A stretch of 64,000 nt of DNA, from the NCBI GenBank assembly GCA_963842085.1, contig CAWJET010000001.1:2016001-2080000 (forward strand). Direction: 5' to 3'. The notes under the pieces were generated by a model that saw only the letters and a program-made list of their open reading frames with translations, searched no databases and was not told the DNA's origin. Position numbers and translations under genes: made by a program. Source of the DNA: an uncultured delta proteobacterium (GTDB lineage Bacteria; Desulfobacterota; Binatia; Binatales; Binataceae). Positions 16,786 through 45,144 of this stretch are shown here, one piece after another (the stretch's first letter is position 1; each line of letters begins with the position of its first letter).

Positions 16786-16863
16786 GGACGCATAGCTCAG
16801 CCCGGTTAGAGCGCTTGCCTCACATGCAAGAGGTCCCTGGTTCGAGTCCAGGTGCGTCCACCA
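16786..16863 (+). tRNA. tRNA-Val(CAC)
   Basis: GGACGCA/TGCGTCC acceptor stem, anticodon arm CTTGC-CTCACAT-GCAAG, GGTTCGAGTCC T-arm, encoded CCA. Confidence 0.96.
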
Positions 16864-16875
16864 ATTAATTCAACT
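16819..16875 (+). repeat. att core, tRNA-side copy
   Basis: CTCACATGCAAG...CCACCAATTAATTCAACT, identical to 45088-45144. Confidence 0.95.
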
Positions 16876-18049
16876 AGTTAGGAAGATCTCGTTTTCCGAC
16901 CGCTGCAGATTGTGCCCAATTTTGTGCCCTGCTCGTTTGGTGGTCTTCCGCTCCAACGGCGGAAACCGCCTGATCGAGGGTCGCGATCGCGGCCTGTTTG
17001 GCGGAAATCCGAATGTGACTGTAACGTTCGAGCATCTTCCGGGAGACGTGCCCGGCTAGGGATCGAATCGTTTCTTCGCTGACGTTGGGGTTCTCAGCCA
17101 GGCGGGTGATGAACGTATGTCGGCAATCATGCCAGCGATATTGAACCTTGGCCCCCTTGCACGCGACCTTCCAAGCCTTTTTCCATTCACCGATTGGATG
17201 TGCGAGGTCGGCCCCATAGAACTTGGGGCGACGAGCGTTACCCTCTAAGCCGACCGAAAAGCGCGGAAATACATAACTGTCGGCTTCGGTTTCGAGAAAA
17301 CGCGACAACCACAGCGTCAGGACCGCACAGACTCTGGACGTGAGCGGTACGCTGCGTCCAGTGCCGGCTTCCGTCTTTGACTTGGGAACCGTGAGTGCGC
17401 CCTTCTCGATTACGCCGCTGCGCCACTCCAACATTAGATCGCGTCGGCGCAACGATCGTATCTCGGAAGCGCGCAGTCCACTGTCTAGGCTGACAATTAA
17501 CAAGGGGAGAAGGGCCGGCGAGCGGCTCTTCGCTGCTGCGTCTATGAGCTTCTTTTCATCTCCGCAACTAATCGCGCGCCCTACGTCGCGCCGCTCTCGA
17601 AGGCTCTTCACCTTGTCCGAAATGGCTCCCCACAGCCCGTGAGCCTTGAGGATTTGGCGCAATATGTTAATTTCGAAATTCACCGTACGCGCCGACTTCT
17701 GTTCCGCCAATCGCTTGCGTTGAAGAGCCGAGATGTCTTGGTCGTCGATGTCGCACACGAGCCGCTTTCCGAATTGTCCGGTGAGCGTCTCGACAAAATG
17801 CTCATATGCTTCGAGTGTATTTGCCGCGAGAGCCACTCGACTGGCCAACCATTCTTTCGCGGCAACCGAAAAGAGCGGCATCCGCTCGCGCTTTGGGATG
17901 CGATTAACCGCGAGCTCGATCTCGCGGCGACGAGCTCGTTCCGCTTCGCGGGCGACCGTCTTTGAGTTGGTCCTGGCCGATTCTCGAATGAGCTGCCCTT
18001 GGAACAGGAACTTGAACCAGTACGTCTCGCCCCGTTTGTAAACACTCAT
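16874..18049 (-). CDS. Tyrosine recombinase/integrase
   Basis: SGLRASE (R), KSKT (K), HDCRH (HxxR), LAGH, RYSH (Y). Confidence 0.95.
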   Translation of the reverse strand: MSVYKRGETYWFKFLFQGQLIRESARTNSKTVAREAERARRREIELAVNRIPKRERMPLFSVAAKEWLASRVALAANTLEAYEHFVETLTGQFGKRLVCDIDDQDISALQRKRLAEQKSARTVNFEINILRQILKAHGLWGAISDKVKSLRERRDVGRAISCGDEKKLIDAAAKSRSPALLPLLIVSLDSGLRASEIRSLRRRDLMLEWRSGVIEKGALTVPKSKTEAGTGRSVPLTSRVCAVLTLWLSRFLETEADSYVFPRFSVGLEGNARRPKFYGADLAHPIGEWKKAWKVACKGAKVQYRWHDCRHTFITRLAENPNVSEETIRSLAGHVSRKMLERYSHIRISAKQAAIATLDQAVSAVGAEDHQTSRAQNWAQSAAVGKRDLPN

Positions 18050-18072
18050 CGCGTTAGCTCCCTGCGCAATCT

Positions 18073-18321
18073 TCAGGCCGCGCGATCGCTCGCCTCGGCC
18101 AGGTAGCGACGAACTTCGGTATCCAGCACGACTACGCGCCGTCCGAGATGTGCCGCTTTGAGCCGTCCGCGCTTGACCTCCAGTCGGATGAACGGCACCG
18201 AGACGCTGAGGCTGCGGGCTAGCTCGTCCAGGGTCCAGCCGAGTTTGGGGGTACTCAGCCTCTCAGAATCTGCGCCTTGAGCTTGGGAACTGACTTGAAC
18301 TACTGACATGATAACAAACAC
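18073..18321 (-). CDS. Excisionase-like HTH protein
   Basis: WTLDELARSLSVS...GRLKAAHLGRRVVV; directly upstream of int. Confidence 0.8.
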   Translation of the reverse strand: MFVIMSVVQVSSQAQGADSERLSTPKLGWTLDELARSLSVSVPFIRLEVKRGRLKAAHLGRRVVVLDTEVRRYLAEASDRAA

Positions 18322-18366
18322 CTCGATCCATTGAGTGCGACGGTCATTTACCCATCGTCAAGCTGG

Positions 18367-18403
18367 ATCATAGACCAATTCTGATGGAATTGTCAAATTC
18401 CAT
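18367..18403 (-). promoter_or_regulatory. xis-int promoter with operator palindrome
   Basis: Minus-strand TTGACA (18396-18391), 18 bp spacer, TATGAT (18372-18367). ATGGAATT-N4-AATTCCAT palindrome at 18384-18403 overlaps the -35 box. Confidence 0.6.
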
Positions 18404-18427
18404 AATTCCGTTACGCATGGCCGGATT

Positions 18428-19099
18428 TCACGATTCGGTCAGCAGACCCAAACGCAGGAGCCGGACCCGTGCGGCCTGTTCGGAGACCTGGCAACCCCTC
18501 ATGATCCGTGTGATCACGGCACGGCCGGGCTTCGAATCGATGAACAGGGGGGACTTGCTCCCATCCCGCATCGCGATCTCACCGGCCATCGTGAGCACGT
18601 ACGACCGTGGCATCAGCAGCGCCCCGCTGATGTAAGCTGCCTGCCATTCCATCCAGTCGTTCTCGGGAGCGGTCACGATGGTGTCGCGTTCGCAGCGCCA
18701 TGAGCGCGCGGCGGGACGACGGTCAGAATCCCGCCCGGATTTTCTCCACAGCGGAGCGTGGAATCGCACGTGGCCATACTCATGGCCCAGAGTCATCCGG
18801 AGCCGGTTCTCATAGCGCGGCGAGGATAGGCGTTCAGAAATTTTCACCTTGGGATTACGGTCAGCAAAGTAGTCTGTGTATCCGTCTACGCTTTCAGGGA
18901 GGTCGGCATACAGGTCGAGGTCGTCGGCTTCGGCCTCGATCATGCGGATTATGTCGTCGGTGGGGATCGGAAGCCTGAAGCCGCCGGAGCGGTGGCCCAT
19001 AAACTCCGCGACGATTCGCTCGCATCGCTCGTCAAGCTCGTCGGCCTTGAAGTAAAGGCGATCGATCGGCCGTCCTAGCGGATCGCGAAGCACTTTCAT
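18428..19099 (-). CDS. ImmA/IrrE-family metallopeptidase
   Basis: RLRMTLGHEYGH (HExxH), EWQAAYISGALLMP, VSEQAARVRL. Confidence 0.9.
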   Translation of the reverse strand: MKVLRDPLGRPIDRLYFKADELDERCERIVAEFMGHRSGGFRLPIPTDDIIRMIEAEADDLDLYADLPESVDGYTDYFADRNPKVKISERLSSPRYENRLRMTLGHEYGHVRFHAPLWRKSGRDSDRRPAARSWRCERDTIVTAPENDWMEWQAAYISGALLMPRSYVLTMAGEIAMRDGSKSPLFIDSKPGRAVITRIMRGCQVSEQAARVRLLRLGLLTES

Positions 19100-19425
19100 T
19101 TTCGCTTGCCCGGTGGTCTTACCCCCAGTGCCTTTCGGAACGCGCGGTAGGCGGCTTCGAGCCGTTCCTGGTCCGCCTCGGTCTTTACGTCAGGCGGCTG
19201 GCGGTTTGCGTGAAAGTACAGCACATCAGGCGAGACGCCGACAATCTTTGCCATCTGCTCGATCAGGTAGTCCTCTGGCGGATAGCGGTGATCATGCTCG
19301 ACCGCATTAAGATACGGAGGGTCCACTGGACGCCCGTCCTCGCGCTTCAAGCGCGCGGCAAGCTCTCTCTGCGTAAGCCCGGCCTTTTTCCGAGCGTCCC
19401 TAAGCACCTGACCGAAACTCTTCAT
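19096..19425 (-). CDS. XRE-family HTH repressor (ImmR-like)
   Basis: FGQVLRDARKKAGLTQRELA; 4-bp overlap with the peptidase gene. Confidence 0.88.
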   Translation of the reverse strand: MKSFGQVLRDARKKAGLTQRELAARLKREDGRPVDPPYLNAVEHDHRYPPEDYLIEQMAKIVGVSPDVLYFHANRQPPDVKTEADQERLEAAYRAFRKALGVRPPGKRK

Positions 19426-19782
19426 TCAAGTTTATCAGCGCCAGCAACCGCCGCTCGCCGCCTCCTGCCGCTAAAGATTATCGGAATCTGCAAGAAAAGT
19501 CATCGAAAGCTACAATCTCAGAATTACAGAAATCCACAATGACAGACCAATCACGCCGGTATGATTACGTCCGCTTCCCCGCAGGGGCAGGACGCGCTTC
19601 TGTTCTTCGGGTAGCGCACCATTTTGAGGGCGCGCGCCCTTCACTCGAACCTGAGGGCGCGCGCTGGATTCCGAGTCGCGCGGAGCGAAACGCTGCATGG
19701 CGTGCCAAGCGAAGCGCCCGGCGTGAGCCGGTGGAACGCCGTGCCAGTGTAGCGAGCGTCACCGCTTTTGATTGCGAAGAGT

Positions 19783-22506
19783 CTACCTGCGAATGCCGTG
19801 CCCTCGACTGATACTCCGATGCTGTTCCGGCAAGATGGCAAAGCCGCGATTGGCAATAGAGGGACTCTCCAAAGCCATTGATTTCTCACGGCTTCGAGCT
19901 GCTGCCGGCGCAAGTCTGCTGCGGTCGTCCGTGAAGATCGCGACTGCGTGGCGGGCTCGGCTGATCGAGACATAGAACTGCTTGCGGTTGACCAGCTCGG
20001 GGGAGAGCCGGGTATCGATATCGACGATAACTCGATCGACCGTTGCGCCCTGCGCCGAGTGCGAAGTGGAGGCGTAGCCGTGGTCAATGTGGCGAAGACG
20101 ATCGAGCGCGGCGGTTATCTCCTTGCCGTTATCGAGCTGGATCACCGCACGCTGGGCATCGATGGATTTAATTGTGGCGAGTTCACCGTTCGCAACGCCG
20201 AGCGCCCGGTCGGGTGCCCGGAACTGTATGCGGTCGCCTCGTGCGATCGTGCGCTGCTCCTCGCGGAAGACTTCGACGCCGAAGAGTCTGGTGGGACTGT
20301 ACTCGATGCGATGGCCATCGGACCTCGTGACCGCGAGCATATTGGCATCGCGATCGACTGCTTCAACTCGCCCGTAGCTGCCCTTGGGAACCGCGAATTG
20401 TTTGCTTCCGCGCGTGAAGCGGATCACATCGCCTTCTTCGTAGTTGTAGGCCATCGCTCGTTGGGCGCCGGATAGCCCGCGATTTACGAGGATCGCATGC
20501 TCCTTCCCGACGAACGGTATATGGCCACGGACGATCAGCTCAGACCGAATCGCTTTGTTGAGTTCGCGACGCTCCTGGTTCGCCGGGCTGACGACCAGAA
20601 CGCGCTGTCCTGATTCATATGCGGCGGCGTATTCTCTGGCGATCTGCTTGCGTCTCTGTTCGACGTTCGCGACTTCGCGGATATCACCACGGCGGTCGAG
20701 GATCGCAAGGGACTCGGGGATCTCGCCTTTAGACGCTAGCGTAACGGCTATGCGGAGCTCGGGATCGCGCTGGCGGCGGATGGTATCGAGGCGGGTGACC
20801 AGCATGCCAGCCTCTTGCATTTGATAGATCGGTCGTCCGGCTTCGATCGCGTGATGCTGGCGCTGGTCGCCGACGAAGATGATCCGCTCGATGCCTTCGT
20901 CGCGTGCCTTGTGGAGGAGCCGGTTGACCTGCCGGGTCGGGAGTAGGCTCGACTCGTCAACAATCCATATCTTTTTCGTTTGCGCATCCGGTGATTGGCC
21001 TTCGAGGAGGCTGGCGACAGTTCTTGCGGAGACGCCTGCCTCGGAAAGCGACTTGACCGCACGCGTCGTTGGCGCGAACCCGTAGACCGCGTAGCCCTGC
21101 TCTTCCGCGAACTCGCGAATCGCTCCGACAGTGGTCGTTTTCGCAGCGCCCGCGCGGCCTTCGATTGAGGTGATCCAGTCGGTGGACTCAAGCGTGAGTC
21201 CGGCGGCGACAGTCTGATCAGGAAGCAAGTTGCGCTGGCTCGCCCATCGGCGGATCTCGGTTGAACTGCCGATAGTGGCGGCCCTGCCTTGGCCCGCACG
21301 CATCAGGTCGATGTTCCCGCGCTCAAGGGCGATCATCTCCGGCGTCGTGTAGGCGCCTCGCGGTGAGTTCACGGAGTCGCCGGCGACGATCAGCCGGCCG
21401 TTTCGCTGGAACCGCTCGCGCTCAGCGCGTATCGAATGAAGGTCCGCCTGCCCCATCGCATGCTGCAGTGCCTTCGCTTCAAGTGCGCGGCGATCAATGA
21501 CTGCCTCGCGCTCGCTGTTTTCGTCGATACTCTGGCGAATGGCTTCTTCCGCCGTCTCCGGATGTCGAAACTGGATGGGACCGCGTTCGCGCGATTGCGA
21601 CAACAGACGCTCGACTTCGATTCCATACTGCAGCGCGCGTGAGCGCCATTCCGCCTTGAGGCTTTCTTCATCGCGATGATCTTTCGACAGTCTGGTCCGA
21701 TGCGCGATGATCTGCGCCGCCTCGGCACCCGCCAGCCCCTCACGCGCAAGCGTCCGTTCGATGTCCTGGCGACGACGGGAGAAGGCCATCACCTGCTCGC
21801 GTGTGTAGCCGTCAACCTCCCATCGCCCGTCATGGCCCGCGACCCGGATTTCGTATCCGAGTTGTTGAACCTGTCGGGCTAGTTCAGAGCGGTAAACTGC
21901 CGTGGCAAAAGCTTGCGCGCGATAGATTTCAATGGGATCGAGGCCGCGCCACCGTCCGTCCGGGCGGCGGGTCATGTTGGCGATGACGACGTGCGTGTGA
22001 AGGTGAGGGTCGGGACCGTAGCCGTCTTTAACTCCGCTGGCGGGCCGAGCGGCAATGTGATCGAAGCGCGCGGCGACTATATTGCTGGCCGCGACCCATT
22101 CGCTGCCGCCTCGGCGTCGCGAGAGCGCGTATTGTTCGAGCTCCTCCAGTGCGCGACTGACTGCCTGACGGTGCGCCTCGATAAGGCGGTGATCGTCTCC
22201 GACCAGCCCCTGGATGCTGACCGACTTCGGCGCGTTGAAGGTCGCGTCCCAGCCAGCGCGCCGGTCGTCGTAGCCGTTGGCCTTATGAACGAGCACCTCG
22301 CCGGACGCGGGACGAAGCCCACGCAGTACGGCGTGGAAGTCCTCGGTCGCGACGTCGCCGGAGAGTCCCAGCTCCTCAGCGCCGCGGCCGAACCATTGCC
22401 CGACTACGCTCTGCTTCTCCGAGTAATAGTCGTCGTGCGAGTACTTCTCCTCGTAATAGGTCTCGGCCTGAGCGGCGGTGAGCGCGCCTTTGGACATTAC
22501 CAGCAT
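19783..22506 (-). CDS. MOBF (TrwC/TraI-type) relaxase-helicase
   Basis: YY...DDYY catalytic tyrosines, DATFNAPKSVS, DPHLHTH HUH motif, GRAGAAKTT, VDESSL, VGDQRQH, HGYASTSHSAQG. Confidence 0.95.
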   Translation of the reverse strand: MLVMSKGALTAAQAETYYEEKYSHDDYYSEKQSVVGQWFGRGAEELGLSGDVATEDFHAVLRGLRPASGEVLVHKANGYDDRRAGWDATFNAPKSVSIQGLVGDDHRLIEAHRQAVSRALEELEQYALSRRRGGSEWVAASNIVAARFDHIAARPASGVKDGYGPDPHLHTHVVIANMTRRPDGRWRGLDPIEIYRAQAFATAVYRSELARQVQQLGYEIRVAGHDGRWEVDGYTREQVMAFSRRRQDIERTLAREGLAGAEAAQIIAHRTRLSKDHRDEESLKAEWRSRALQYGIEVERLLSQSRERGPIQFRHPETAEEAIRQSIDENSEREAVIDRRALEAKALQHAMGQADLHSIRAERERFQRNGRLIVAGDSVNSPRGAYTTPEMIALERGNIDLMRAGQGRAATIGSSTEIRRWASQRNLLPDQTVAAGLTLESTDWITSIEGRAGAAKTTTVGAIREFAEEQGYAVYGFAPTTRAVKSLSEAGVSARTVASLLEGQSPDAQTKKIWIVDESSLLPTRQVNRLLHKARDEGIERIIFVGDQRQHHAIEAGRPIYQMQEAGMLVTRLDTIRRQRDPELRIAVTLASKGEIPESLAILDRRGDIREVANVEQRRKQIAREYAAAYESGQRVLVVSPANQERRELNKAIRSELIVRGHIPFVGKEHAILVNRGLSGAQRAMAYNYEEGDVIRFTRGSKQFAVPKGSYGRVEAVDRDANMLAVTRSDGHRIEYSPTRLFGVEVFREEQRTIARGDRIQFRAPDRALGVANGELATIKSIDAQRAVIQLDNGKEITAALDRLRHIDHGYASTSHSAQGATVDRVIVDIDTRLSPELVNRKQFYVSISRARHAVAIFTDDRSRLAPAAARSREKSMALESPSIANRGFAILPEQHRSISRGHGIRR

Positions 22507-24329
22507 CAGTCCTGAATCCTCACCGGGACGCCCGCGGTCCCGTTGGGAGGCGTCGGGCCGCGACTGATCGTCAGCGCCGCCAAATCGGCGCTGGGCTCAT
22601 CGCTGACCGGCCTCGGAAGAGCGCGCGGAATGAACTCGACCTGCCGCCGGCGCGGAAGGCACGGCTTCACTTTGACGCGGGCGCGATCGAGTCCGGCGAT
22701 GCAGAGATAGCCTTCCAGCTTCGGCAGCCGCTGGATCTCGGAGGCCATGACGACCGGCTCGGTCCGGCGCGTCGGATGGACGTTGAACCGATTGCCGTGC
22801 TCGGCGGTGCTCATTCCGATCTCCTCGCGCAGTGCCTCACGGTCGCCGATCTGCCGCGCGATGAAGGCGGCCGTCTCGGGCTCATCAACGCGCAACAGGA
22901 GCTTGGTCGAGGGCATCGAGGCGAGCACCGCTGCCTGCTCGTGGCCATAGATCCGGCGCAACTGAGCGATACTTTGGAAGCCGAGAACGGCGGCGAGTCC
23001 GCGCTTTCGGCCACGCGTGACCAGCGTCTCGAGCTTCGCCTGACGGCCAAGCACCGGCAGCTCGTCCACCATGATCCAGACCCTTCGGCGATCGCTGGCG
23101 GAGTTGAGCATGCGGCCTACAACGAGGTCGAGCCAGAGGTTCGCGAGCGGCAGCGCCGCCGAGCTGGACTCGTCGCGCATCGTCACGAACAGCCATCCTT
23201 CCGAATGCTCGGTCCATTCAAGCGCGCTCCACAGCGGTCGCCCGTCGGCGGGCGGCAGATAGAGGAATGGTCTGGTCGCGTTCGCAACGGTCGCAATGAT
23301 CCCTGCTCCCTGCTCGTGTGCTCCGGGGTCGATCAGACTGTATGCCGGCGTGCCGGAGAGCGCCTGCTTCAACTGATCGCGAGTGAGTTCGAGCAGCTTC
23401 GGGATGCTCTGCGGCTCTCGGGAGGCCGCGACCTGAAGCAGGCTTTCGAGCAGCGTCCGGCTGGATTGACGGAAGAAGTGATCGGACCCGCTTTCGTAGC
23501 CGCGCGGGGCTTCGGGAATGAGCGAAGCGGCGAGCGTCGCCGCGTCAGCCTGGTAGTATCGTTCGCTCAATTCCAGCCACGGTGACCAGTACGGACAGCG
23601 TTCATCGACCGGGTTCAGGATAAGGTCTCCGCGCACGGGTCGATAGAATTCCGAGACGTATTCGCACTCAGGATCGACCACGATCGCAAGCTCTCCGCGC
23701 ACCTGGATCTGGCGAAGGAGCGAGCGGATCGCCATCGACTTCCCGGCTCCCGTCGCGCCGGTGATGAGGAAGTGTTCGCACTCGGTCGAGCGCGGAATGC
23801 GAACCTGGGCGAGCTCGACTCCCGCCCGTTCGCTCCGCAATTCGGTGCGGCGAAGTTCTCGGGCGAGCCGGCGCGGCGGGATCAACGTGAGGCCTCGCAG
23901 ATGCTTCCCCTCTGAACGGTCCTCGGGATCACGGAAGAGGAGATAGCCGAGAGCGGCGAGAGTTATGGTTGCCGGGACCGCTCCCCATACGCTGTAAGAG
24001 GCGAACCACTGTCCGAATGAGCGCCCCAGATAGAAGCGCCAGTTGAGGTAGAGATACATGCTGCCGATCGTCGCACGTCCGCCTCGGTACGGGAGCGACA
24101 GAAAATAGAGCGGGACTTTCTGAGTGAAGAACCAGGCGAGAATCCAGCGGCCGAAGTATTGATGCGCGCCGGGTCCTGAGACGCGGCCGGTCCAGTACCA
24201 GACGAAGAAAAGGTCGGAAGCCGCCCAGATCAGAATCCAAAGCAGCAGGATTCGAAGATAGAGGCGCAGCAGCGTCGCGGCTGAACCGCAACTCAATTCG
24301 TATCTGATGGCGGTTCGTGACAAATTCAT
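22506..24329 (-). CDS. Type IV coupling protein (TrwB/TraD-like)
   Basis: N-terminal TM helices, GATGAGKS Walker A, VDEL Walker B, GRKRG, LGFQSIAQL. Confidence 0.92.
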   Translation of the reverse strand: MNLSRTAIRYELSCGSAATLLRLYLRILLLWILIWAASDLFFVWYWTGRVSGPGAHQYFGRWILAWFFTQKVPLYFLSLPYRGGRATIGSMYLYLNWRFYLGRSFGQWFASYSVWGAVPATITLAALGYLLFRDPEDRSEGKHLRGLTLIPPRRLARELRRTELRSERAGVELAQVRIPRSTECEHFLITGATGAGKSMAIRSLLRQIQVRGELAIVVDPECEYVSEFYRPVRGDLILNPVDERCPYWSPWLELSERYYQADAATLAASLIPEAPRGYESGSDHFFRQSSRTLLESLLQVAASREPQSIPKLLELTRDQLKQALSGTPAYSLIDPGAHEQGAGIIATVANATRPFLYLPPADGRPLWSALEWTEHSEGWLFVTMRDESSSAALPLANLWLDLVVGRMLNSASDRRRVWIMVDELPVLGRQAKLETLVTRGRKRGLAAVLGFQSIAQLRRIYGHEQAAVLASMPSTKLLLRVDEPETAAFIARQIGDREALREEIGMSTAEHGNRFNVHPTRRTEPVVMASEIQRLPKLEGYLCIAGLDRARVKVKPCLPRRRQVEFIPRALPRPVSDEPSADLAALTISRGPTPPNGTAGVPVRIQD

Positions 24330-24664
24330 ATAGCTCTTCTCCTGAGCCTGCGCATGTACTGCTCGGCTTCTTGTTGCGCAGTCTGGCGGATCTGATCGGT
24401 CGCCTCGGAGCCGACCTGGTGGTCAAGCAGATGCTGGAGCGTGAGGCGGGTGCGGGTGAGATCGAACAGAATCTGATCGAGGCTTGGGCGTTGGTTTGAT
24501 TCGTCGATCGGCCCGCCGAGGCGAGGGCGACCATCTCCACCGAAGTGCTCAGCGAGTACTGCGCGGATCAATTTGCGCGGCGCAATTCCTCTGTCCCGCG
24601 CGATTTTCTCAATCCGCTCCAACAGCTCCGGCGCCAGGCGGACGGTATATGGAATCTCCGGCAT
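24326..24664 (-). CDS. RHH relaxosome accessory protein (TrwA-like)
   Basis: YTVRL strand followed by two helices; first gene of a trwABC-like operon. Confidence 0.65.
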   Translation of the reverse strand: MPEIPYTVRLAPELLERIEKIARDRGIAPRKLIRAVLAEHFGGDGRPRLGGPIDESNQRPSLDQILFDLTRTRLTLQHLLDHQVGSEATDQIRQTAQQEAEQYMRRLRRRAI

Positions 24665-35556: not shown

Positions 35557-38500
35557 ATTTCCGCGCTCCTCGGAGCGCGGCCACATTGAAGCGACTGGGA
35601 CGCTGGCGATTTCCGCGCTCCTCGGAGCGCGGCCACATTGAAGCGAACACGGCGGCATAGTGCCGTCAGCCGCGGGGGGCAATTTCCGCGCTCCTCGGAG
35701 CGCGGCCACATTGAAGCTGTTGCTTTCGAGGATACCAAATACCGGCAGCGAAATTTCCGCGCTCCTCGGAGCGCGGCCACATTGAAGCCCGTCGCGTCCC
35801 TATTCGAGCGGCTGAACATTCCGAATTTCCGCGCTCCTCGGAGCGCGGCCACATTGAAGCTATCTGCTGCATGACGGGAAGATTCTTGATTTCGCCGAAT
35901 TTCCGCGCTCCTCGGAGCGCGGCCACATTGAAGCCCGACCGGCATCGTCAACACGGGCGGTTGGTACGACGTCATTTCCGCGCTCCTCGGAGCGCGGCCA
36001 CATTGAAGCAAAAACTCGCGTACCTTTTCGATCGGCGTTCCCGCCAACATTTCCGCGCTCCTCGGAGCGCGGCCACATTGAAGCTTCGTCCCTGTGCATC
36101 ATCCAGTCGGGGCTGTATTTCATTTCCGCGCTCCTCGGAGCGCGGCCACATTGAAGCCGATGCCACTGGAACCCGGTAGACGCAGCGCGCCGTATTTCCG
36201 CGCTCCTCGGAGCGCGGCCACATTGAAGCTTTTCCAGCTTCGCGACTGCCGCCAGGTAGGCCTGGTCATTTCCGCGCTCCTCGGAGCGCGGCCACATTGA
36301 AGCGCTACCAGCCAGATTGCCATCGCCGTTTTCCTCCAATTTCCGCGCTCCTCGGAGCGCGGCCACATTGAAGCCTGAAGGCCGTGGCCAAGGGAGAACT
36401 GACGCTGGGCTTATTTCCGCGCTCCTCGGAGCGCGGCCACATTGAAGCCCGCCGACCGATATCTCCACCTGGGGCTGACCCGCATTTCCGCGCTCCTCGG
36501 AGCGCGGCCACATTGAAGCGAACACGAAGCTAAAGGAACTCGACGACAAAATCAATTTCCGCGCTCCTCGGAGCGCGGCCACATTGAAGCAGTATAAACT
36601 CGGCGCCTGGGCGGTCGCGCAACAAATTTCCGCGCTCCTCGGAGCGCGGCCACATTGAAGCAAGGTCATCGGGCCGCAGCAGCAATCCTTGCAATAGAGA
36701 TTTCCGCGCTCCTCGGAGCGCGGCCACATTGAAGCGATCCAGTAACCAGCTTCCTGTGCGGTCGAGACGAGACACATTTCCGCGCTCCTCGGAGCGCGGC
36801 CACATTGAAGCTATATGAACAACGGATCCGTCACCATAACAATTCTGATTTCCGCGCTCCTCGGAGCGCGGCCACATTGAAGCACGCTTCATTGTGAGAG
36901 TCTGATACTTGCTCTGCAAATTTCCGCGCTCCTCGGAGCGCGGCCACATTGAAGCTGAGATCATAGGCGCGACGGCCCAGTGAAATGAAGACATTTCCGC
37001 GCTCCTCGGAGCGCGGCCACATTGAAGCCCTACTCCTTCGAGGACTAGCAGCCTAATGAGGCGCAATTTCCGCGCTCCTCGGAGCGCGGCCACATTGAAG
37101 CGGAACCATGCAGTGTCAGTCCGCGAGGGCAGCAGCGCATTTCCGCGCTCCTCGGAGCGCGGCCACATTGAAGCCACCAAGACCCTTTAACAACCCGAAT
37201 AGCATCCCCCATTTCCGCGCTCCTCGGAGCGCGGCCACATTGAAGCACAATCTCCCATACATAGGATGTAAGAAAATGCTACACAATTTCCGCGCTCCTC
37301 GGAGCGCGGCCACATTGAAGCGGGCATGGGCGCGTCCCCTCATTCTGGTGAATGCAGATTTCCGCGCTCCTCGGAGCGCGGCCACATTGAAGCTTGGGAG
37401 CCAGGTTGGGATACGGGAGCGGCAGCATATTTCCGCGCTCCTCGGAGCGCGGCCACATTGAAGCGAGGAACTCTATGATGTCCTGTTCGCCGGGGAACAC
37501 CGATTTCCGCGCTCCTCGGAGCGCGGCCACATTGAAGCCTTGCTCAGCACGTCCTTCCCGCCGGGCGGCTTTCCATTTCCGCGCTCCTCGGAGCGCGGCC
37601 ACATTGAAGCAGCATCGAACCTCTGGTGTGCATCGCAAAAGATATCATTTCCGCGCTCCTCGGAGCGCGGCCACATTGAAGCCCTGTACATTTCATTGCC
37701 ATTTACGTTGCCTCCCGGATTTCCGCGCTCCTCGGAGCGCGGCCACATTGAAGCCAGGCGCTCAAGCGCATCTTCAGCGCGCGAAATTCGATTTCCGCGC
37801 TCCTCGGAGCGCGGCCACATTGAAGCGACGCCGCTGCGGCCTCAGTCAACCGCTGGCAGGCAGATTTCCGCGCTCCTCGGAGCGCGGCCACATTGAAGCG
37901 GGTCCAGCGTTAGCGGCAGCGACCCGACTGTCCATATTTCCGCGCTCCTCGGAGCGCGGCCACATTGAAGCTTGCTATGCGAGCTCGCTCACCTGGGGTA
38001 AGCGCGGATTTCCGCGCTCCTCGGAGCGCGGCCACATTGAAGCGACCGTATATCCGCGGTTCCGGCTCTCCCGCTCCGCATTTCCGCGCTCCTCGGAGCG
38101 CGGCCACATTGAAGCTTAGTCACCGTCACCGTGTTAGTATTCGATACGGTATTTCCGCGCTCCTCGGAGCGCGGCCACATTGAAGCAGTATCGTCAGGGC
38201 GCAAGACCAGCGGTTTGATCTTATTTCCGCGCTCCTCGGAGCGCGGCCACATTGAAGCACGACGACCGGCGGGATGCTCTCGCCTTTGACGGACATTTCC
38301 GCGCTCCTCGGAGCGCGGCCACATTGAAGCATGAAAAATGTTTGAACCAGCCCGACCGCATCCCCATATTTCCGCGCTCCTCGGAGCGCGGCCACATTGA
38401 AGCGATCTGATCATGGCGTGCGAGACTGCCGAGGCCGGCCATTTCCGCGCTCCTCGGAGCGCGGCCACATTGAAGCTTGACTAAAGCTTCTGGCGCCAGC

Positions 38501-41479
38501 ACTTCGGCAACGTTATTTCCGCGCTCCTCGGAGCGCGGCCACATTGAAGCCAGAATCCGGCACTCGTGCGCCTTTTGTAGACACAAATTTCCGCGCTCCT
38601 CGGAGCGCGGCCACATTGAAGCCGTTGCCCACGGCGCGCTAAAAGGCCGTTAGACCTGCATTTCCGCGCTCCTCGGAGCGCGGCCACATTGAAGCGCGCG
38701 CCATTCCGCGATCAGCTTGTCGATAAAGTCGGATTTCCGCGCTCCTCGGAGCGCGGCCACATTGAAGCTCGGATGCGGCATCGGTGCTCACCTCCTTGCG
38801 CACTATTTCCGCGCTCCTCGGAGCGCGGCCACATTGAAGCCCGCAGCCGCATGGCATCGATCTCCAAAACTTCGCAGATTTCCGCGCTCCTCGGAGCGCG
38901 GCCACATTGAAGCAAGACCCTCGGGATCCTGAACCGCCGCCGGCACGATAATTTCCGCGCTCCTCGGAGCGCGGCCACATTGAAGCTGGATCTCGAGCCG
39001 ATGCGGCGCGGCGGGCTGCGGGATATTTCCGCGCTCCTCGGAGCGCGGCCACATTGAAGCTACTTAGAGCGGCGTGGGCCGAAGGTGCGTAACAAATTTC
39101 CGCGCTCCTCGGAGCGCGGCCACATTGAAGCCGCAGCGTCCAGGATCTCCTCTACGCGTTCTTCGGTGATTTCCGCGCTCCTCGGAGCGCGGCCACATTG
39201 AAGCGGCGGCGTGGCCGAGATGCGTTTCGGGCGTGACGTTGCGATTTCCGCGCTCCTCGGAGCGCGGCCACATTGAAGCGAGAGTCGTTCCCCCAATTCC
39301 TTGAGGTCTTCCCGCGATTTCCGCGCTCCTCGGAGCGCGGCCACATTGAAGCGGTTCCATCCGCTGGTGACCCAAGGCATGCGCCTGCTGATTTCCGCGC
39401 TCCTCGGAGCGCGGCCACATTGAAGCCGCACCTACGGTGTCTCGCCGCCGGTGCAGTACGTCTCATTTCCGCGCTCCTCGGAGCGCGGCCACATTGAAGC
39501 GGCCTCGACACAATCATCACCCGCGCCTATCTGCGATTTCCGCGCTCCTCGGAGCGCGGCCACATTGAAGCTGGATGAGAAACTGCGGACCTTCCATTAC
39601 CGTCTTCTCTGATTTCCGCGCTCCTCGGAGCGCGGCCACATTGAAGCGGGAATGCGAGAGTTGACCGAGCAGGAACGGGGACTCGGATTTCCGCGCTCCT
39701 CGGAGCGCGGCCACATTGAAGCTCATCGCCGCGCGCAACTCCAGCCCTTCGAGCAACGCATTTCCGCGCTCCTCGGAGCGCGGCCACATTGAAGCATAAC
39801 CATGCCGCGCTGCAAGGTCTGCGGCTTTCTTTTCATTTCCGCGCTCCTCGGAGCGCGGCCACATTGAAGCTATATTGCCTATGCCTTGCGACGTTGCGCA
39901 ATACTTTATTTCCGCGCTCCTCGGAGCGCGGCCACATTGAAGCTATATTGCCTATGCCTTGCGACGTTGCGCAATACTTTATTTCCGCGCTCCTCGGAGC
40001 GCGGCCACATTGAAGCAGTCAAGACCCCAATAACCCGTTGTTGTGTTTGCGTATTTCCGCGCTCCTCGGAGCGCGGCCACATTGAAGCCCAGGACACCAG
40101 CTCACCTGGTCCGTCGCTCCTGGCGGCATTTCCGCGCTCCTCGGAGCGCGGCCACATTGAAGCGAAGCTCGCCGGGCTCGGCCAGCCGTCGGCCATCGGC
40201 TGATTTCCGCGCTCCTCGGAGCGCGGCCACATTGAAGCCAGGCGACCGCCTACAACCCGCAGGGTACGGGGTATATGTATTTCCGCGCTCCTCGGAGCGC
40301 GGCCACATTGAAGCAGCTTCAACCCCGGCGCGCTGCTCCCAACGGCGCCGAATTTCCGCGCTCCTCGGAGCGCGGCCACATTGAAGCCGCAGGAAGCTCC
40401 GCGCTCTCGGACGGTACAAAATGCTGTATTTCCGCGCTCCTCGGAGCGCGGCCACATTGAAGCCAAAAATTGAAGTGGTATTACTTCCTAAAGGTTGATT
40501 AATTTCCGCGCTCCTCGGAGCGCGGCCACATTGAAGCGTGGATCGCGCGGACGAACTCGGTGGTCGAACCAAATTTCCGCGCTCCTCGGAGCGCGGCCAC
40601 ATTGAAGCCGATCGCAACGTTGAGGCTCTTAAGCAGGATGACTCATTTCCGCGCTCCTCGGAGCGCGGCCACATTGAAGCTGGCGATCCGCGCGGAAGCG
40701 CAGCGGCTCGGAATCAATTTCCGCGCTCCTCGGAGCGCGGCCACATTGAAGCTTATTTGATGATGGCGTAACGCTTTGGTCGCTTGGAAAATTTCCGCGC
40801 TCCTCGGAGCGCGGCCACATTGAAGCCAGACGGCGCACGCGAAGAACATGGCCGCACGGCTATTTCCGCGCTCCTCGGAGCGCGGCCACATTGAAGCAAA
40901 CCGCGGCACCTGCTTTGAGGGACTTAGAGGCAAATTTCCGCGCTCCTCGGAGCGCGGCCACATTGAAGCTAGACCACCGCGACGACATTGGTGCCGTCGC
41001 ATCGGAGTATTTCCGCGCTCCTCGGAGCGCGGCCACATTGAAGCGGGAATTCCATCCTTTCCTCGTTTCGGTATGGCGACATTTCCGCGCTCCTCGGAGC
41101 GCGGCCACATTGAAGCGCGAGCGAGCACTTTAAGAGCGCGGTCGCGGTCAGAATTTCCGCGCTCCTCGGAGCGCGGCCACATTGAAGCGAGGATCGCGGG
41201 GCGATGCTTGTTGGGCAATCCCGCATATTTCCGCGCTCCTCGGAGCGCGGCCACATTGAAGCCACAGTTCATCGGCCAACCACCATCACGGAGCCGCATT
41301 TCCGCGCTCCTCGGAGCGCGGCCACATTGAAGCCAGACCCAGATCGCCGACGGGATGCAGTCGCTCACTGAAATTTCCGCGCTCCTCGGAGCGCGGCCAC
41401 ATTGAAGCTATTAGGGGAGGAACTATGGCATCAGCACTCGGAAATTTCCGCGCTCCTCGGAGCGCGGCCACGTTGAAGC
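35557..41479 (+). CRISPR. CRISPR array, 82 repeats / 81 spacers (manual count)
   Basis: 36-bp repeat ATTTCCGCGCTCCTCGGAGCGCGGCCACATTGAAGC with CCGCGCTCC/GGAGCGCGG hairpin and ATTGAAGC 3' handle. Spacers mostly 35-40 nt. The terminal repeat has one A>G change. Confidence 0.99.
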
Positions 41480-41504
41480 CGATGCGCTCTTGCTGCCCCC
41501 GATG

Positions 41505-41819
41505 CTACTCCAGATCCGGACGAGGTCCTTTCGTGGTTTTTCTCGCGTTCGTGATCTTGGCGGGGTCGATGTCAACCCAACCCCCTGCTCTGGCAGCTTC
41601 CAGCTCCTTAAGCGCCCTGGCAACGAGTGCCTCCGCGCCGTCGCGGCGATTGTGCTTGATAACGTAGGAGAGTGCGACTATCTCACCGTCCCGAACCAGC
41701 CGACAAGCATAGTCGGAAATCAGACTCAGGCCGGTGATGTTGGCTATCTCAGCGATGGAGATCGGATATTTCCATGTTTCCTCTCCGTTCGGGACGAGTT
41801 CTATGATGACACGCAACAT
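41505..41819 (-). CDS. Hypothetical protein (104 aa)
   Basis: ORF with AGGA RBS, co-oriented downstream of the nuclease gene. Confidence 0.6.
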   Translation of the reverse strand: MLRVIIELVPNGEETWKYPISIAEIANITGLSLISDYACRLVRDGEIVALSYVIKHNRRDGAEALVARALKELEAARAGGWVDIDPAKITNARKTTKGPRPDLE

Positions 41820-41851
41820 CGATCGTCCGTCCTGATTTTAGGGATCAGAAG

Positions 41852-42265
41852 TCAGAGTTTGCCTTCATTCGCCAGAGCAACAAAGGCTTCCAGCGAAAGC
41901 ACCGTCACCGCCTCGGTGCCGACAAGGTGCTTCTGGATCTTCTCGACGTAATATTCCCTGAGCGTCCAGCCGGGTCCGCCAAGGACCACGTAGCCGCGTT
42001 TGTAGCTCGGAGCCTCCCTGATGGCTTCGGCGAGGCAAATGATCTCGAAAGGCACCTTCTGTTCGGCAGTGCCCGAACTCTGCTGCCACTTCATCGAGAT
42101 TAGGAACTCTTCGCCCGCTTTTTCGGCGGCCAGATCCACTTTGTGCCGTCCGCCGCCCGGACGCGAACCGACAAGCACCTGCTTGCGATATGAGTAGCCG
42201 CCACGTTTCAGAGCGGGCAGGACCATGCTCTCAAGGACGGCTCCAGTATTTGTGTTCCGCCCCAC
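41852..42265 (-). CDS. PD-(D/E)XK nuclease, putative restriction endonuclease
   Basis: HKVDL...ISMKWQQSSGTAEQKVPFE; starts 3 bp after the methylase. Confidence 0.75.
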   Translation of the reverse strand: MGRNTNTGAVLESMVLPALKRGGYSYRKQVLVGSRPGGGRHKVDLAAEKAGEEFLISMKWQQSSGTAEQKVPFEIICLAEAIREAPSYKRGYVVLGGPGWTLREYYVEKIQKHLVGTEAVTVLSLEAFVALANEGKL

Positions 42266-42268
42266 CCT

Positions 42269-43087
42269 TTAATCGAGACCGCGGGTCGCGAGGACTTCCT
42301 TGGCGGGCGATCGGTCTCCGGTGCAGTTGATCATGCGCGGCGCATCAACCAGAAACAGCGTAAACCCGAGTTTCTTGTACAGTCGAAGAATCCGATCCGT
42401 GGCTTGATTTGACAGGACCGTCGGGCCCCGATGCTTTGCCAACCATTCCCCCAACCGAACTTGGTCGTCCCAGCTGAACCCTTCTTTTGAGTAGGACCGG
42501 AACTCCACGTCATACGGCGGGTCGGCGTAAACGAAGTCGCCGACCTCGACCGGGACCTGCTCGAAGTCGCCGATCGAGAATTCCCACTCACTCAAAATGC
42601 GACGATAGTCCCTGAAATCGCGCTTGTAGTTGATCCGTTTGTATCGGCCAAACGGGACGTTGAACTGTCCGCTTGAATTGAAGCGGCAAAGGCCGTTGTA
42701 GCAGGTGCGGTTCAGATAGTAGAAGAGTGCAGCCGCCTCCGCCGTTTCGGCTCCGCCATCCGAGATCAATTCGTTGAACCGCGCTCGATGCGCGTAATAG
42801 AGGGTCTCGCTGTTGGCAAATCGCAACCGGTCATCGACTCTAAGACCACGCTTGAGCCATGAATAAAAATGAACTGCGTGCGGGTTGATGTCGTTCAACA
42901 GCGCGTGCTTCGGGCGCAGGCTGAGGGTGACGGCGAGCCCACCGCAGAACGGCTCAACCAGGCGCCGGCTTTCGTGCAATTTCCACAATTCGGCAAGATG
43001 CGGAACAAGCCACCGTTTTCCGCCGGCCCACTTGAGAGGAGGTCGAACTGGTACTACCTGCACCTGAAGAACCGCAACCGCCGCCAT
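42269..43087 (-). CDS. Dam/D12-family DNA adenine methyltransferase
   Basis: LKWAGGK, EPFCGG, NDIN, YNGLCRFNSSGQFNVPFG, DPPY. Confidence 0.93.
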   Translation of the reverse strand: MAAVAVLQVQVVPVRPPLKWAGGKRWLVPHLAELWKLHESRRLVEPFCGGLAVTLSLRPKHALLNDINPHAVHFYSWLKRGLRVDDRLRFANSETLYYAHRARFNELISDGGAETAEAAALFYYLNRTCYNGLCRFNSSGQFNVPFGRYKRINYKRDFRDYRRILSEWEFSIGDFEQVPVEVGDFVYADPPYDVEFRSYSKEGFSWDDQVRLGEWLAKHRGPTVLSNQATDRILRLYKKLGFTLFLVDAPRMINCTGDRSPAKEVLATRGLD

Positions 43088-43344
43088 CGCGCTTTCACCT
43101 TTACTCGATGGCGTGGCCGGAGGCGAGAGCGGACATCTGGTTTTCCTGAGATGCGCACTTTGGTTGTAGACAGGTCCGCTTGAAATCTTAAACCTTCTCC
43201 CGAAGAGCGGCTTCGTCGATCGAAGCGTGAAGCCGCGCTGCTGCGTTTCGCAAAATCCGCCATTTCACGTCACGTGGAACAAATCTTTCTGTGAAACGCT
43301 TTTGGAACGTGACTTAGCCGTCGAACGGGGGGAAAAAAAGTGCT

Positions 43345-43388
43345 TTGATGTCATGAAAAAGTCAAGTATAATTTGACTTATGCATGAC
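43345..43388 (+). promoter_or_regulatory. abiE promoter with autoregulatory inverted repeat
   Basis: TTGATG, 16 bp spacer, TATAAT (43367-43372), nested in the GTCATG..AAGTCAA / TTGACTT..CATGAC palindrome. ATG is 7 nt after the -10 box, so the mRNA is probably leaderless. Confidence 0.65.
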
Positions 43389-44003
43389 ACAGACTCGCGC
43401 CGCAACTCACCTCTGCGCGCACGCCTTTTTGAAATTGCCTCCGAACAGGGCGGATACTTCACCGCGCCTCAGGCGCGGACATGCGGCTACAGCAGAGCGC
43501 TGCTTGCTCATCATGCCAAGTCGGGCCGTCTCATTCGAGTCCGTCAGGGGCTTTATCGCTTTCGAGAGTACCCGAGTTCCCCTCGGGAAGACGTGATCGC
43601 CGCATGGCTTGCGGCCGGCAGAGAGACGGCCGTGGTATCCCATGAGAGCGCGCTGGACATTCTGGGTCTTTCCGACGTGGTACCAGACATTGTCCATCTT
43701 ACGGTCCCGAGATCAAAGCGCTACCGTACTGCCACTGTCGGCGCAGCGGTCCACACGACGACTCGGCGGATTGGCAAATCAGACGTGGTCGTACGCGAAG
43801 GAATCCGAGTAACAGGGCCTGTGCGGTCTATCGTGGATTCTGCCGAAGCCGGGACCGCCCCAGAACAGATAATGGCTGCTGTAGGTCAAGCACTGGATCG
43901 GGGCATTGCAACACGGTCAAAACTCCTCGGTGCGGCGAGGGCGCGCGGCGGCAGAGTCGAGCGCCTTGTTCGACAGGCTCTCGAGGAGCGTCGGCAAACA
44001 TGA
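43380..44003 (+). CDS. AbiEi-family type IV antitoxin
   Basis: ASEQGGYFT, LIRVRQGLY, VVSHESAL, GIRVTGPVRSIVD. Confidence 0.88.
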   Translation: MHDTDSRRNSPLRARLFEIASEQGGYFTAPQARTCGYSRALLAHHAKSGRLIRVRQGLYRFREYPSSPREDVIAAWLAAGRETAVVSHESALDILGLSDVVPDIVHLTVPRSKRYRTATVGAAVHTTTRRIGKSDVVVREGIRVTGPVRSIVDSAEAGTAPEQIMAAVGQALDRGIATRSKLLGAARARGGRVERLVRQALEERRQT

Positions 44004-44881
44004 AGTACAAAAGCGGTGCTGCGTTTCGTCAGGCGCTGGAACAGCGTCTGCTCGGCCGTTCGCGAGAGACCGGCACTTCTCTCGTTCGCCTGCGCAAAGG
44101 GGTTGTCTTCGATCGCCTTCTGGCGCGCCTTACGGTCGCTGCTCGAGGACGGTGGGTCCTCAAGGGCGCCCTCGCTCTGGACTTCCGACTCGGAGGGCGA
44201 ACGCGGACGACAAAAGACATGGACCTGATTCGCAACGATAGCGAAGAGGCAGCTACCGCTGACCTGATAGCCGCTCAAGCTGTCGAACTCGGTGACTTCG
44301 TCACCTTCGATATCGAGAAGGTGGGCGCGCCTGGCGAAGAGCTCGAAGGCGCTGCAATGAGATACCGCGTAAGAGCGGAACTGGGCGGCAGGCGCTTCGA
44401 GGATGTAATCGTCGATATCGCTTTCTCTGATCCGCTGAAATGGGCGCCCGAGAAAATCGCCGGTACAGATCTTCTGGAATTCGCCGGAATCGAACCGATC
44501 GAGGTTCCGGTCCTACCGCTCGAACAACACATCGCAGAAAAAGTTCACGCCTACACGAGAATTTACTCAAGCGGTCGCACAAGTAGTCGAGCCAAGGATC
44601 TGGTGGATATCGTCCTCGTGAAGCAATTCATGGTGCTGGATGCCGCTCGCCTTCGCACTGCGCTCGTGGGAGTCTTCGAGGGAAGGCGTCAGCATGGTCT
44701 TCCGGATCGGTTCCCGCCACCGCCACCCGAATGGGCGGTCCCGTACCGGAAGCTGGCCAACGAAGTTGGTCTCGATCCGGACCTGCGTCAGGGCCATGCG
44801 CAAGCTGCGGCGCTGCTCGATCCCGTTCTGGCCGGTCGAGCCGCGGGCCACTGGGATCCGGAGCGGGGTTCATGGACGTGA
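44000..44881 (+). CDS. AbiEii/AbiGii nucleotidyltransferase toxin
   Basis: WVLKGALAL...RTTKDMDL, IAEKVHA, RAKDLVD. Confidence 0.9.
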   Translation: MKYKSGAAFRQALEQRLLGRSRETGTSLVRLRKGVVFDRLLARLTVAARGRWVLKGALALDFRLGGRTRTTKDMDLIRNDSEEAATADLIAAQAVELGDFVTFDIEKVGAPGEELEGAAMRYRVRAELGGRRFEDVIVDIAFSDPLKWAPEKIAGTDLLEFAGIEPIEVPVLPLEQHIAEKVHAYTRIYSSGRTSSRAKDLVDIVLVKQFMVLDAARLRTALVGVFEGRRQHGLPDRFPPPPPEWAVPYRKLANEVGLDPDLRQGHAQAAALLDPVLAGRAAGHWDPERGSWT

Positions 44882-44901
44882 CGCGTGGGCATCTGATTTA
44901 C

Positions 44902-44941
44902 TGTGCCCAATTTTGTGCCCGGTGTGCCCGATTCTGTGCCC
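44902..44941 (+). repeat. Probable integrase arm-type sites (TGTGCCC x4; x2 at 16911-16929)
   Basis: TGTGCCCAATTTTGTGCCC is present inside both ends of the element. Confidence 0.7.
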
Positions 44942-45087
44942 CAACCGGAGATCAATCGAAAGTACTCGGTAACTGAGGGTCGCACTTCAGTCGTGCGCAG
45001 AAAACCCTTCTGCCACAGCGCTTTTACTGCTCTCTAGCGCTACCGAGCGATACCAGACTATTCTGGCGTTTGAGCACGGTTGCACAA

Positions 45088-45144
45088 CTCACATGCAAGA
45101 GGTCCCTGGTTCGAGTCCAGGTGCGTCCACCAATTAATTCAACT
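45088..45144 (+). repeat. att core, distal copy (3' half of tRNA-Val)
   Basis: Identical to 16819-16875. Confidence 0.95.

Follow-up and report, generated by a model that had tools for sequence, protein, structure and literature searches.

An integrative mobilizable element (IME) with a complete type I-G CRISPR-Cas system very likely occupies the 3' end of a tRNA-Val(CAC) gene in the genome of an uncultured delta proteobacterium of the family Binataceae. The window that we analyzed is a 64-kb stretch of this genome (GenBank assembly GCA_963842085.1, contig CAWJET010000001.1, positions 2,016,001 to 2,080,000), and the element spans positions 16819-45144 of it, ~28.3 kb bounded by 57-bp perfect direct repeats. 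A preliminary description of the same DNA had proposed such an element, and the proposal is borne out by a polymorphic insertion site and by the presence of the same backbone at tRNA-Val in three relatives (G006, G051 and G059). We observe the anatomy of the element, its insertion polymorphism, the distribution of its lineage and the chimerism of its CRISPR-Cas locus directly in the sequences compared.

Genes in the window were called with Pfam, NCBIfam and PADLOC and tRNAs with ARAGORN; backbone and cas genes were identified from profile scores and motifs. The comparison sets were 40 relatives for the search with flanking sequence, 46 other genomes of the genus (47 with the source) and 164 other genomes of the family from 30 genera. 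G000 is the source genome, with contigs C1 and C2, other G numbers are genomes of relatives, and coordinates without a prefix are those of the window.

Occupancy of the tRNA-Val site is polymorphic

The sole tRNA gene in the window is a complete tRNA-Val(CAC) on the forward strand (16786-16863, by ARAGORN). Its 3' 45 nt lie within the left repeat, attL (16819-16875, +), which is made up of these last 45 nt of the gene and 12 nt downstream, and the right repeat, attR (45088-45144, +), is followed by native flank that is contiguous with tRNA-Val in genomes with an empty site. Both repeats were delimited by repeat comparison and alignment with the empty sites, and their identity over 57 bp confirms the perfect att repeats reported earlier. 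A longer pair (16819-16912 and 45088-45181) is 90% alike over 94 nt, the first 57 nt being the identical ones. The 25-nt att core occurs exactly twice in the window, against zero expected from 100 shuffles, and G+C content is 0.58-0.62 within the element versus 0.63-0.65 in the flanks. In alignment with empty sites, the attL core is followed on its right by 37 nt that are similar to the native sequence flanking the tRNA downstream, suggesting that the attP of the element holds host-like sequence past the tRNA end.

In four congeners (G007, G003, G020 and G011), flank search and alignment found a complete tRNA-Val directly followed by the homologue of position 45145 and beyond. The site is also empty in G005 and G014, which have a variant flank without 15349-16740 and 45145-46038. 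The first of these segments is likewise missing beside the flank in G008, and several relatives break at the same places; the neighborhood is variable beyond the element. In further relatives the tRNA and a second att core enclose islands of a different kind, of 41 kb (G002 and contig C1 of G004), 39 kb (G009), 13 kb (contig C10 of G004), 8 kb (G008) and 1.3 kb (G016). G002 also has a related relaxase/coupling protein backbone upstream of tRNA-Val in the opposite orientation (C23:159805-174799), and 15 kb from the tRNA lies a partial copy of its 5' part; the 41-kb island of G002, ending in an att core, lies on the downstream side.

DNA of 16864-36000 has matches in 19 of the 46 other genomes of the genus. 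G006, G051 and G059 share 16866-19764 at 89-90% and 19790-25713 at 84-87% identity, and homology ends at 25713; for the left arm as a unit (16866-25713) the range is 86-92%. All three have the att core beside the integrase gene, and in G059 and G006 a second core follows AbiEii, where the right arm (43344-45133) is 79% identical and AbiEi and AbiEii are 77-82% identical in amino acid sequence. Between these arms the siblings carry unrelated genes, including those for an FRG-domain protein, an APH-like kinase, TetR, a sulfatase, BacA, redoxins and glyoxalases. The preliminary description had suggested looking for the same backbone with different cargo at tRNA-Val, and this is what the three siblings hold. 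Because the sibling arms flank unrelated genes, we define the variable slot as 25714-43343 (17.6 kb) and count AbiE as backbone. Related backbones also lie at other tRNA genes in two other genera, beside tRNA-Pro in G069 and 1.7 kb from tRNA-Ala in G175.

The attL stretch was further found in soil-metagenome runs from several studies, two of which may be the source; the available runs consist of assembled contigs only. X3, a run of another study, has contigs that differ at 0-1 positions and span 16846-19180, 25063-26506 (bridging the junction of backbone and cas3) and 26478-29999. An integrase contig in X7 has four differences, and one in X10/X11 (seemingly one data set) is 96% identical. Depth in X3 is 17.8-21.1 for flank contigs versus 7.5-9.2 for element contigs, which, as depth is not share of cells, hints at most that the element is missing from some of the cells. 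Three loose contig ends in X3 continue after the tRNA with sequence unlike the attR flank and probably belong to other organisms. The empty sites, the cargo swaps of the siblings, the other tRNA sites (G069 and G175) and the independent metagenome contigs lead us to reject a domesticated relic fixed across the lineage, the case that the preliminary description had set against its own proposal.

The backbone encodes integration, regulation and mobilization proteins

The left arm is encoded on the reverse strand. Next to attL lies the gene for a tyrosine integrase of 391 aa (16874-18049; Pfam Phage_integrase, E 1.3e-15), 95-96% identical in amino acid sequence to those of G006, G051 and G059, and then that for an excisionase-like HTH_17 protein of 82 aa (18073-18321; Pfam HTH_17, 28.6 bits; NCBIfam excisionase, 25.4 bits, below the cutoff of 28.8). 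The same strand has, upstream of xis-int, genes for an M78/IrrE metallopeptidase with the motif HEYGH (18428-19099; Pfam) and an XRE-type helix-turn-helix (HTH) repressor (19096-19425; Pfam). The int/xis genes and the repressor/peptidase pair of the preliminary description are all present and full length, the NCBIfam score of the excisionase lying below its cutoff. ImmR/ImmA of ICEBs1 and CapH/CapP of the cyclic oligonucleotide-based antiphage signaling system (CBASS) are switches made of an HTH repressor and an M78 peptidase. The pair in the element resembles them in having an XRE HTH protein next to a HEXXH M78/IrrE peptidase, beside int and xis, with weak PADLOC matches (capP 31 bits, capH 25 bits). 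Going by what is known of these families, the repressor and peptidase, in one transcriptional direction with xis-int, would act as a derepression switch, upon which Int and Xis would recombine the 57-bp att repeats to yield a circle.

The mobilization genes follow. A protein of 907 aa (19783-22506, -; NCBIfam MobF, 262 bits versus a cutoff of 100) has a TrwC relaxase domain at residues 11-292 (Pfam, 287 bits), AAA_30 (157 bits) and UvrD_C_2, that is, the fusion of a TrwC relaxase domain to a superfamily 1B (SF1B) helicase that defines MOBF. Next to it is encoded a TrwB/TraD-like type IV coupling protein of 607 aa (22506-24329, -; Pfam TrwB_AAD_bind, 304 bits) with a Walker A motif. Further along the reverse strand, orf76 (24686-24916), a DUF2274 gene (24913-25197; Pfam) and a gene for a VirB2/TrbC pilin-like protein (25222-25575; 27.8 bits versus a cutoff of 27.9) are conserved both in the siblings and in paralogous elements of the source genome. 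The left arm ends in a stretch (25576-25713) that is 92% identical in G006, G051 and G059; with its 10/10-nt inverted repeat (25602-25621) it is a candidate promoter/operator or origin of transfer (oriT). The backbone open reading frames (ORFs) are all full length and have their motifs. Searches of all ORFs of the element with Pfam and NCBIfam found the VirB2-like gene and no further gene of a type IV secretion system (T4SS). The element does not encode the complete T4SS that integrative conjugative elements (ICEs) have. That no full T4SS is present had been noted before and holds for the pore set; the conserved VirB2/TrbC-like and DUF2274 genes are an addition to that picture. In the mechanism that we propose, the MobF relaxase would nick a putative oriT and, jointly with the coupling protein that the element encodes, would deliver the strand to a mating pore from another conjugative element.

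Three more compact elements of this kind lie on C1 of the source genome (~1248-1257, 1299-1309 and 3013-3023 kb). Each has an integrase, a relaxase (62% amino acid identity), a coupling protein, DUF2274, a VirB2-like protein and an M78/HTH pair, without a T4SS, and their cargo includes a sulfatase, OmpA and DUF2092. Two of the paralogous relaxases are intact; one is broken, with an insertion sequence (IS) in the coupling-protein gene. Among plasmids in PLSDB, the best relaxase match (41%) is on Acidisarcina pACPOL1, where a small gene and those for the coupling protein and MobF have a full VirB3-VirB11 operon immediately upstream. The IME backbone looks like the pACPOL1 operon minus its pore genes, and we infer that these would have been removed at some step.

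The cargo includes a complete type I-G CRISPR-Cas system

The variable slot opens with six cas genes on the forward strand, all scoring above curated NCBIfam cutoffs and given the same names by PADLOC: Cas3g (25915-28755; 575 bits, cutoff 400), Cas8g2 (28759-29715; 162 bits, cutoff 125), Cas7g/Csb1 (29712-30983), Csb2, a cas5-cas6 protein (30987-33200; 339 bits, cutoff 45), Cas2 (33209-33538) and a Cas4g/Cas1g fusion (33550-35376; 746 bits, cutoff 560). The ORFs are full length, and Walker A, DEAH and HD motifs are present. A leader of 180 nt (35377-35556, +) separates cas1 from the first repeat and is an 82% match to G045:C587; the degenerate repeat is the one farthest from it. The array (35557-41479, +) has 82 repeats of 36 nt, identical except for one change in the last, and 81 spacers. 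The complete type I-G system and the 81 spacers of the preliminary description are confirmed in full, as is its estimate that two thirds of the element are defense, defense genes making up ~18.3 of the 28.3 kb. Eighty spacers are 35-40 nt long and the first, leader-proximal one (35593-35608) is 16 nt. Spacers 60 and 61 (39871-39907 and 39944-39980) are identical neighbors; adjacent spacer duplicates occur four times in the array of G056.

The system resembles type I-G (formerly I-U, GSU0051-0054 type) in these six genes, in the HD domain at the C-terminus of Cas3 and in the fusion of Cas4 to Cas1. It differs from the standard arrangement in that cas2 precedes cas4/cas1, Csb2 has ~230 extra C-terminal residues and the modules differ in ancestry.

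Related elements of several genera carry type I-G systems

Within the genus, the exact repeat (up to 3 mismatches) was found in the source genome only (47 genomes); a relaxed pattern also found 49 repeats in G056 and two each in G059 and G006. Among the 164 other genomes of the family, Cas4g/Cas1g was found in 20 (E<=1e-60; full-length matches mostly 69-82% identical, 48-49% in G167) and the relaxase in 48 (E<=1e-150). In G174, G175 and G069 one contig holds a relaxase 80-84% identical to that of the element and, at a distance of 11-13 kb, Cas4g/Cas1g with an array. G174 has int, xis, M78, HTH, the relaxase (80%), coupling protein and ribbon-helix-helix (RHH) genes, then cas genes and 72 repeats. 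In G175, tRNA-Ala precedes the M78 gene by 1.7 kb, without an integrase match there, and the backbone is accompanied by cas2, cas4/cas1 and 41 repeats. G069 has tRNA-Pro, an integrase only 58% identical, the backbone, cas2, cas4/cas1, 20 repeats and AbiEi/AbiEii. G067, of another genus, has the tRNA-Val att core, AbiEii, AbiEi, Dam, PDDEXK, orf104, 32 repeats and cas4/cas1 up to the contig end, and in G045 the backbone is followed, after ~865 bp, by the 3' end of cas1 and the leader at a contig end. Related backbones carry type I-G in three or four other genera, mostly with a broken gene, and the window copy showed none. By these comparisons, CRISPR carriage appears as a recurrent trait of the IME lineage across genera.

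The two halves of the CRISPR-Cas locus have different relatives. Cas3g is 57% identical to its best relative in the family (164 genomes) and at most 46% to the others; among 78 loci elsewhere, from many phyla, the best match is 62%, and no backbone genes lie within 10 kb at those loci. Cas2 and Cas4/Cas1 are 78-90% identical in amino acid sequence to family systems, with 80-90% for G056, G174, G175 and G069. DNA homology to G174, G175 and G069 begins at 33207, between the end of csb2 (33200) and the start of cas2 (33209). To judge from these identities, the CRISPR locus is a chimera, in which a foreign cas3g-csb2 segment is joined at the csb2/cas2 boundary to a family-type adaptation module, leader and array. 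The stem and 3' handle of the repeat are kept across arrays, with the loop CTCG here, ACGT in G067 and G056, and ATCG in G174, G175 and G069; spacer content is wholly different between related arrays. The other type I-G locus of the genus (G056:C21:444800-462000) has cas2 87%, cas4/cas1 82% and cas3 34-39% identical; with a 457-aa integrase, an ArdC-like protein and SSB encoded ahead of it, the locus may be on a different mobile element.

The siblings in G059 and G006 each hold two solitary repeats in array orientation (sites A and B), each identical to the G067 repeat at 35 of 36 positions (G059:C4:1565505-1565542 and 1552935-1552976; G006:C1:19564-19601 and C2:185898-185939). One lies 27 nt past the left arm and is followed by a 20-31-nt piece like the anticodon and variable arm of tRNA-Leu; the other lies ~440 nt ahead of the right arm, immediately next to an att-like fragment on the opposite strand that corresponds to the 3' 76 nt of tRNA-Leu(UAA). 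They have the look of array relics, and the arrangement is what recombination of another island into a former array might leave. We considered, and hold to be doubtful, the idea that they flank a single spacer hit by a tRNA-Leu island: the rebuilt spacer would be 48-49 nt long versus the usual 35-40, and its 31-mer occurs nowhere else in five genomes. ARAGORN found a second tRNA-Leu(UAA) in the source genome (G000:C1:462898-462983), which differs from the genuine gene on C2 in its first 10 nt and matches it at 11-86; it is probably an att scar of a tRNA-Leu-integrating island, and the same 76 nt are present in the G059 sibling. A solitary repeat-like sequence with the same stem, the loop GATC and two mismatches to the relaxed pattern lies on the second replicon (G000:C2:1262816-1262849, -), between MazE-like and PIN-domain genes.

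Spacers are not shared between related arrays, and no credible target was found

Six related arrays (81, 31, 71, 40, 19 and 47 spacers) have no spacer common to any two of them, suggesting independent and ongoing acquisition. The idea that the element delivers pre-loaded immunity is not sustained at this species-level sampling, with zero spacers shared. Searching the 81 spacers against their own genome (blastn-short) gave no off-array alignment above 27 nt. No spacer matched the phage collection by megablast or by blastn (E<=1); for the plasmid collection megablast gave none and blastn eight records, none of them credible. The best of them, 33 out of 35 nt to three Sinorhizobium medicae megaplasmids (E 0.01), falls within a gene for a branched-chain amino-acid permease and was for that reason judged to be chance. 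In the 46 congeners and 164 family genomes, long spacer matches are other arrays, those short matches that were mapped (not all) overlap a repeat, and no hit was seen that covered one entire spacer and nothing else. The spacer search that the preliminary description had called for, with its idea that the spacers may target competing elements, ended with 0 of 81 credible targets in own genome, phages, plasmids and relatives.

The end of a repeat and the start of spacer 71 (40661-40707) match, over 29-35 nt at 89-93%, single sites in G002, G005, G016, G021, G042, G047 and G056 (E 1e-4 to 4e-3 each). This recurrence may be a chance match to conserved chromosomal sequence or to a repeat-like element.

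Alternative readings of the element

Several results weigh against a mobile and active IME. No attB or attP joint and no excision product was seen in the run contigs, and no oriT was found for the element beyond the conserved inverted repeat at 25602-25621. The small RHH-like gene before the coupling protein (24326-24664, -), conserved like the other small backbone genes, scores below cutoffs (E 1e-3 to 7e-3), so that of the relaxase, coupling protein and RHH genes first described the former two stand and the third is weak. Each related CRISPR-bearing copy examined has a visible defect: cas4/cas1 has two stops in G067 and is fragmented in G069, the relaxase of G175 has three stops, and in G174 cas3 has one TGA and the coupling-protein match is in two pieces 2.5 kb apart; no such defect was found in the window copy. 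Interference activity is not evidenced, because none of the 81 spacers has a credible target. A search of the whole genome for T4SS families found one VirB4 (C1:7437-9959) and one TrbI/VirB10, both in C1:~7-18 kb, no F-type TraC and no AAA_10 match above cutoff. The sole T4SS cluster (C1:~5-20 kb) is of the Trb/VirB type with TraG, TraF and TraD, has HNH, HipA and IS genes beside it and includes a 257-codon frame that matches TrbL at positions 3-190 of 215. Because the gene order of this cluster is rearranged and its VirB11/TrbB is truncated (196 codons, profile positions 144-279 of 370), it is doubtful that the genome has a working helper of its own; the borrowing of a helper T4SS foreseen in the preliminary description is not supported by this cluster. 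Finally, within the genus the backbone is 84-90% identical, about as much as the flanks (82-90%), which fits long residence as well as frequent transfer, and between genera the identity of the element (78-87%) is only moderately higher than that of the flanks (70-79%). The latter difference supports spread between genera, which would not be recent and is compatible with long residence. Excision, transfer, use of a helper and interference are what we infer for the element.

Some of these points would also be expected of a decaying ICE that has lost its pore genes and is now an immobile island. The VirB2-like and DUF2274 genes remain where the VirB operon lies in the plasmid relative, VirB11/TrbB is truncated in the one T4SS cluster that the genome has, relatives contain pseudogenes, and within the genus the backbone has diverged about as far as the flanks. 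Nevertheless the layout without a T4SS is repeated in four copies in this genome and in at least ten other genomes of several genera, as a stable design, and the full-length backbone ORFs with their motifs, the perfect 57-bp att repeats and the polymorphic occupancy of the site speak against decay; we regard such a remnant as improbable. It is far less probable still that the CRISPR-Cas system is ordinary chromosomal immunity beside an old integrase and relaxase, with att repeats that mark a unit of a different size. Cas4g/Cas1g in the 20 other family genomes is mostly not linked on one contig to a relaxase, and the type I-G locus of G056 is without this backbone, as such a reading would have it; here, however, the block of cas genes and array sits between sibling-conserved arms inside the att repeats, the whole block is absent from genomes with an empty site, G174, G175, G069 and G067 show this linkage too, and the att core occurs only twice in the window. 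An IME with a type I-G system as cargo is therefore the reading that we retain with high confidence.

A methyltransferase/nuclease pair and AbiE lie to the right of the array

After the array, the reverse strand encodes orf104 (41505-41819), a PDDEXK_11 nuclease-fold protein (41852-42265; Pfam; 97% amino acid identity in G067) and a Dam-family N6-adenine methyltransferase with a DPPY motif (42269-43087; Pfam and NCBIfam; 83% in G067). PDDEXK_11 homologues occur in 38 of the 164 other family genomes, and a Dam homologue adjoins PDDEXK_11 in all 19 other loci that were fetched (two of them in G173 and G178, whose genomes are unpublished). The best PADLOC model for the methyltransferase is 'orphan MTase' (247 bits, versus 200 for MTase_II). 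The PDDEXK_11 protein has no PADLOC match, a PDB sequence search with it came back empty, and none of 120 listed homologues has a functional name. The two genes form a conserved module, plausibly a restriction-modification (R-M) system. Of the RM-like pair in the preliminary description, the Dam methyltransferase and the conserved pairing stand, the partner being known by its PDDEXK_11 fold assignment only.

AbiEi (43380-44003, +; Pfam AbiEi_4; PADLOC 209 bits) and AbiEii (44000-44881, +; Pfam AbiEii; PADLOC 292 bits) overlap by 4 nt and have the adjacent HTH antitoxin and nucleotidyltransferase of AbiE, a type IV toxin-antitoxin or abortive infection system. With ~200 bp up to attR they make up the conserved right arm (43344-45087, +), whose DNA is 79% identical to G059 and G006 and 87% to G067. 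AbiE had been taken for cargo; both genes are indeed present, as part of the conserved arm next to attR. AbiEi/AbiEii more likely serve to stabilize the element as a toxin-antitoxin pair, with or without abortive infection.

DISCUSSION

Parts of this element have counterparts in known systems. The pKLC102-like ICEs of Pseudomonas aeruginosa carry type I-C CRISPR-Cas (van Belkum et al. 2015, PMC4669384), and as far as that account goes they resemble the element in having a complete type I system as cargo of a tRNA-integrating, conjugation-related element in several lineages. They differ in being >100 kb, self-transmissible and integrated in tRNA-Lys, whereas the element described here is 28 kb, without a mating pore, of type I-G and in tRNA-Val. 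The iMOB 'hitchers' are integrated and relaxase-bearing without mating-pair formation genes (Ares-Arroyo et al. 2024, PMC11389934). In the parts of that paper available to us, defense systems are mentioned for phage satellites and hitchers generally, not for IMEs specifically, and CRISPR-Cas only for plasmids. On that description the element is like a hitcher in being integrated, with its own relaxase and no pore genes, and goes beyond it in also encoding a coupling protein and a VirB2-like protein. Our literature searches turned up no title or abstract on an IME that carries type I-G.

The DNA transfer and replication (Dtr) module of R388 has the order trwA-trwB-trwC (MOBF). The element has the same order of a small RHH-like protein, a coupling protein and a TrwC-family relaxase-helicase; unlike R388 it is integrated, has no adjacent T4SS and has a relaxase at most 41% identical to that of any PLSDB plasmid.

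Solitary repeat units in mobile elements are known as RNA anti-CRISPRs, or Racrs (Camara-Wilpert et al. 2023, PMC10651486). The sibling IMEs of G059 and G006 likewise carry single repeats outside arrays; in their case these match the repeat of the closest CRISPR-bearing relative and stand at the two edges of the cargo slot.

As a tentative idea, which we hold to be possible and rather doubtful, the lineage could be a dedicated shuttle of type I-G across at least four genera of one soil-bacterial family, the window copy being the only one examined in which no defect was found. In such a shuttle the adaptation module, the leader and the stem of the repeat would stay, whereas effector cassettes would be swapped at csb2/cas2, as would integrases and tRNA targets; the solo repeats of the siblings could then be functional, as RNA decoys or cargo-exchange sites. 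If this were true, effector swaps at csb2/cas2 could help the system to escape anti-CRISPRs or repeat-mimic RNAs.

CRISPR-Cas systems are established on plasmids, phages and self-transmissible ICEs. A small helper-dependent island with a full type I system and a long array turned over independently would mean that adaptive immunity can travel on 'hitcher' elements as well. The related copies form a natural series, from intact through module-swapped and pseudogenized to leader only and solo repeats, in which gain, exchange and loss may be compared on one backbone, and the exact junction of effector and adaptation genes offers a test case for the interchangeability of type I-G modules and repeats.

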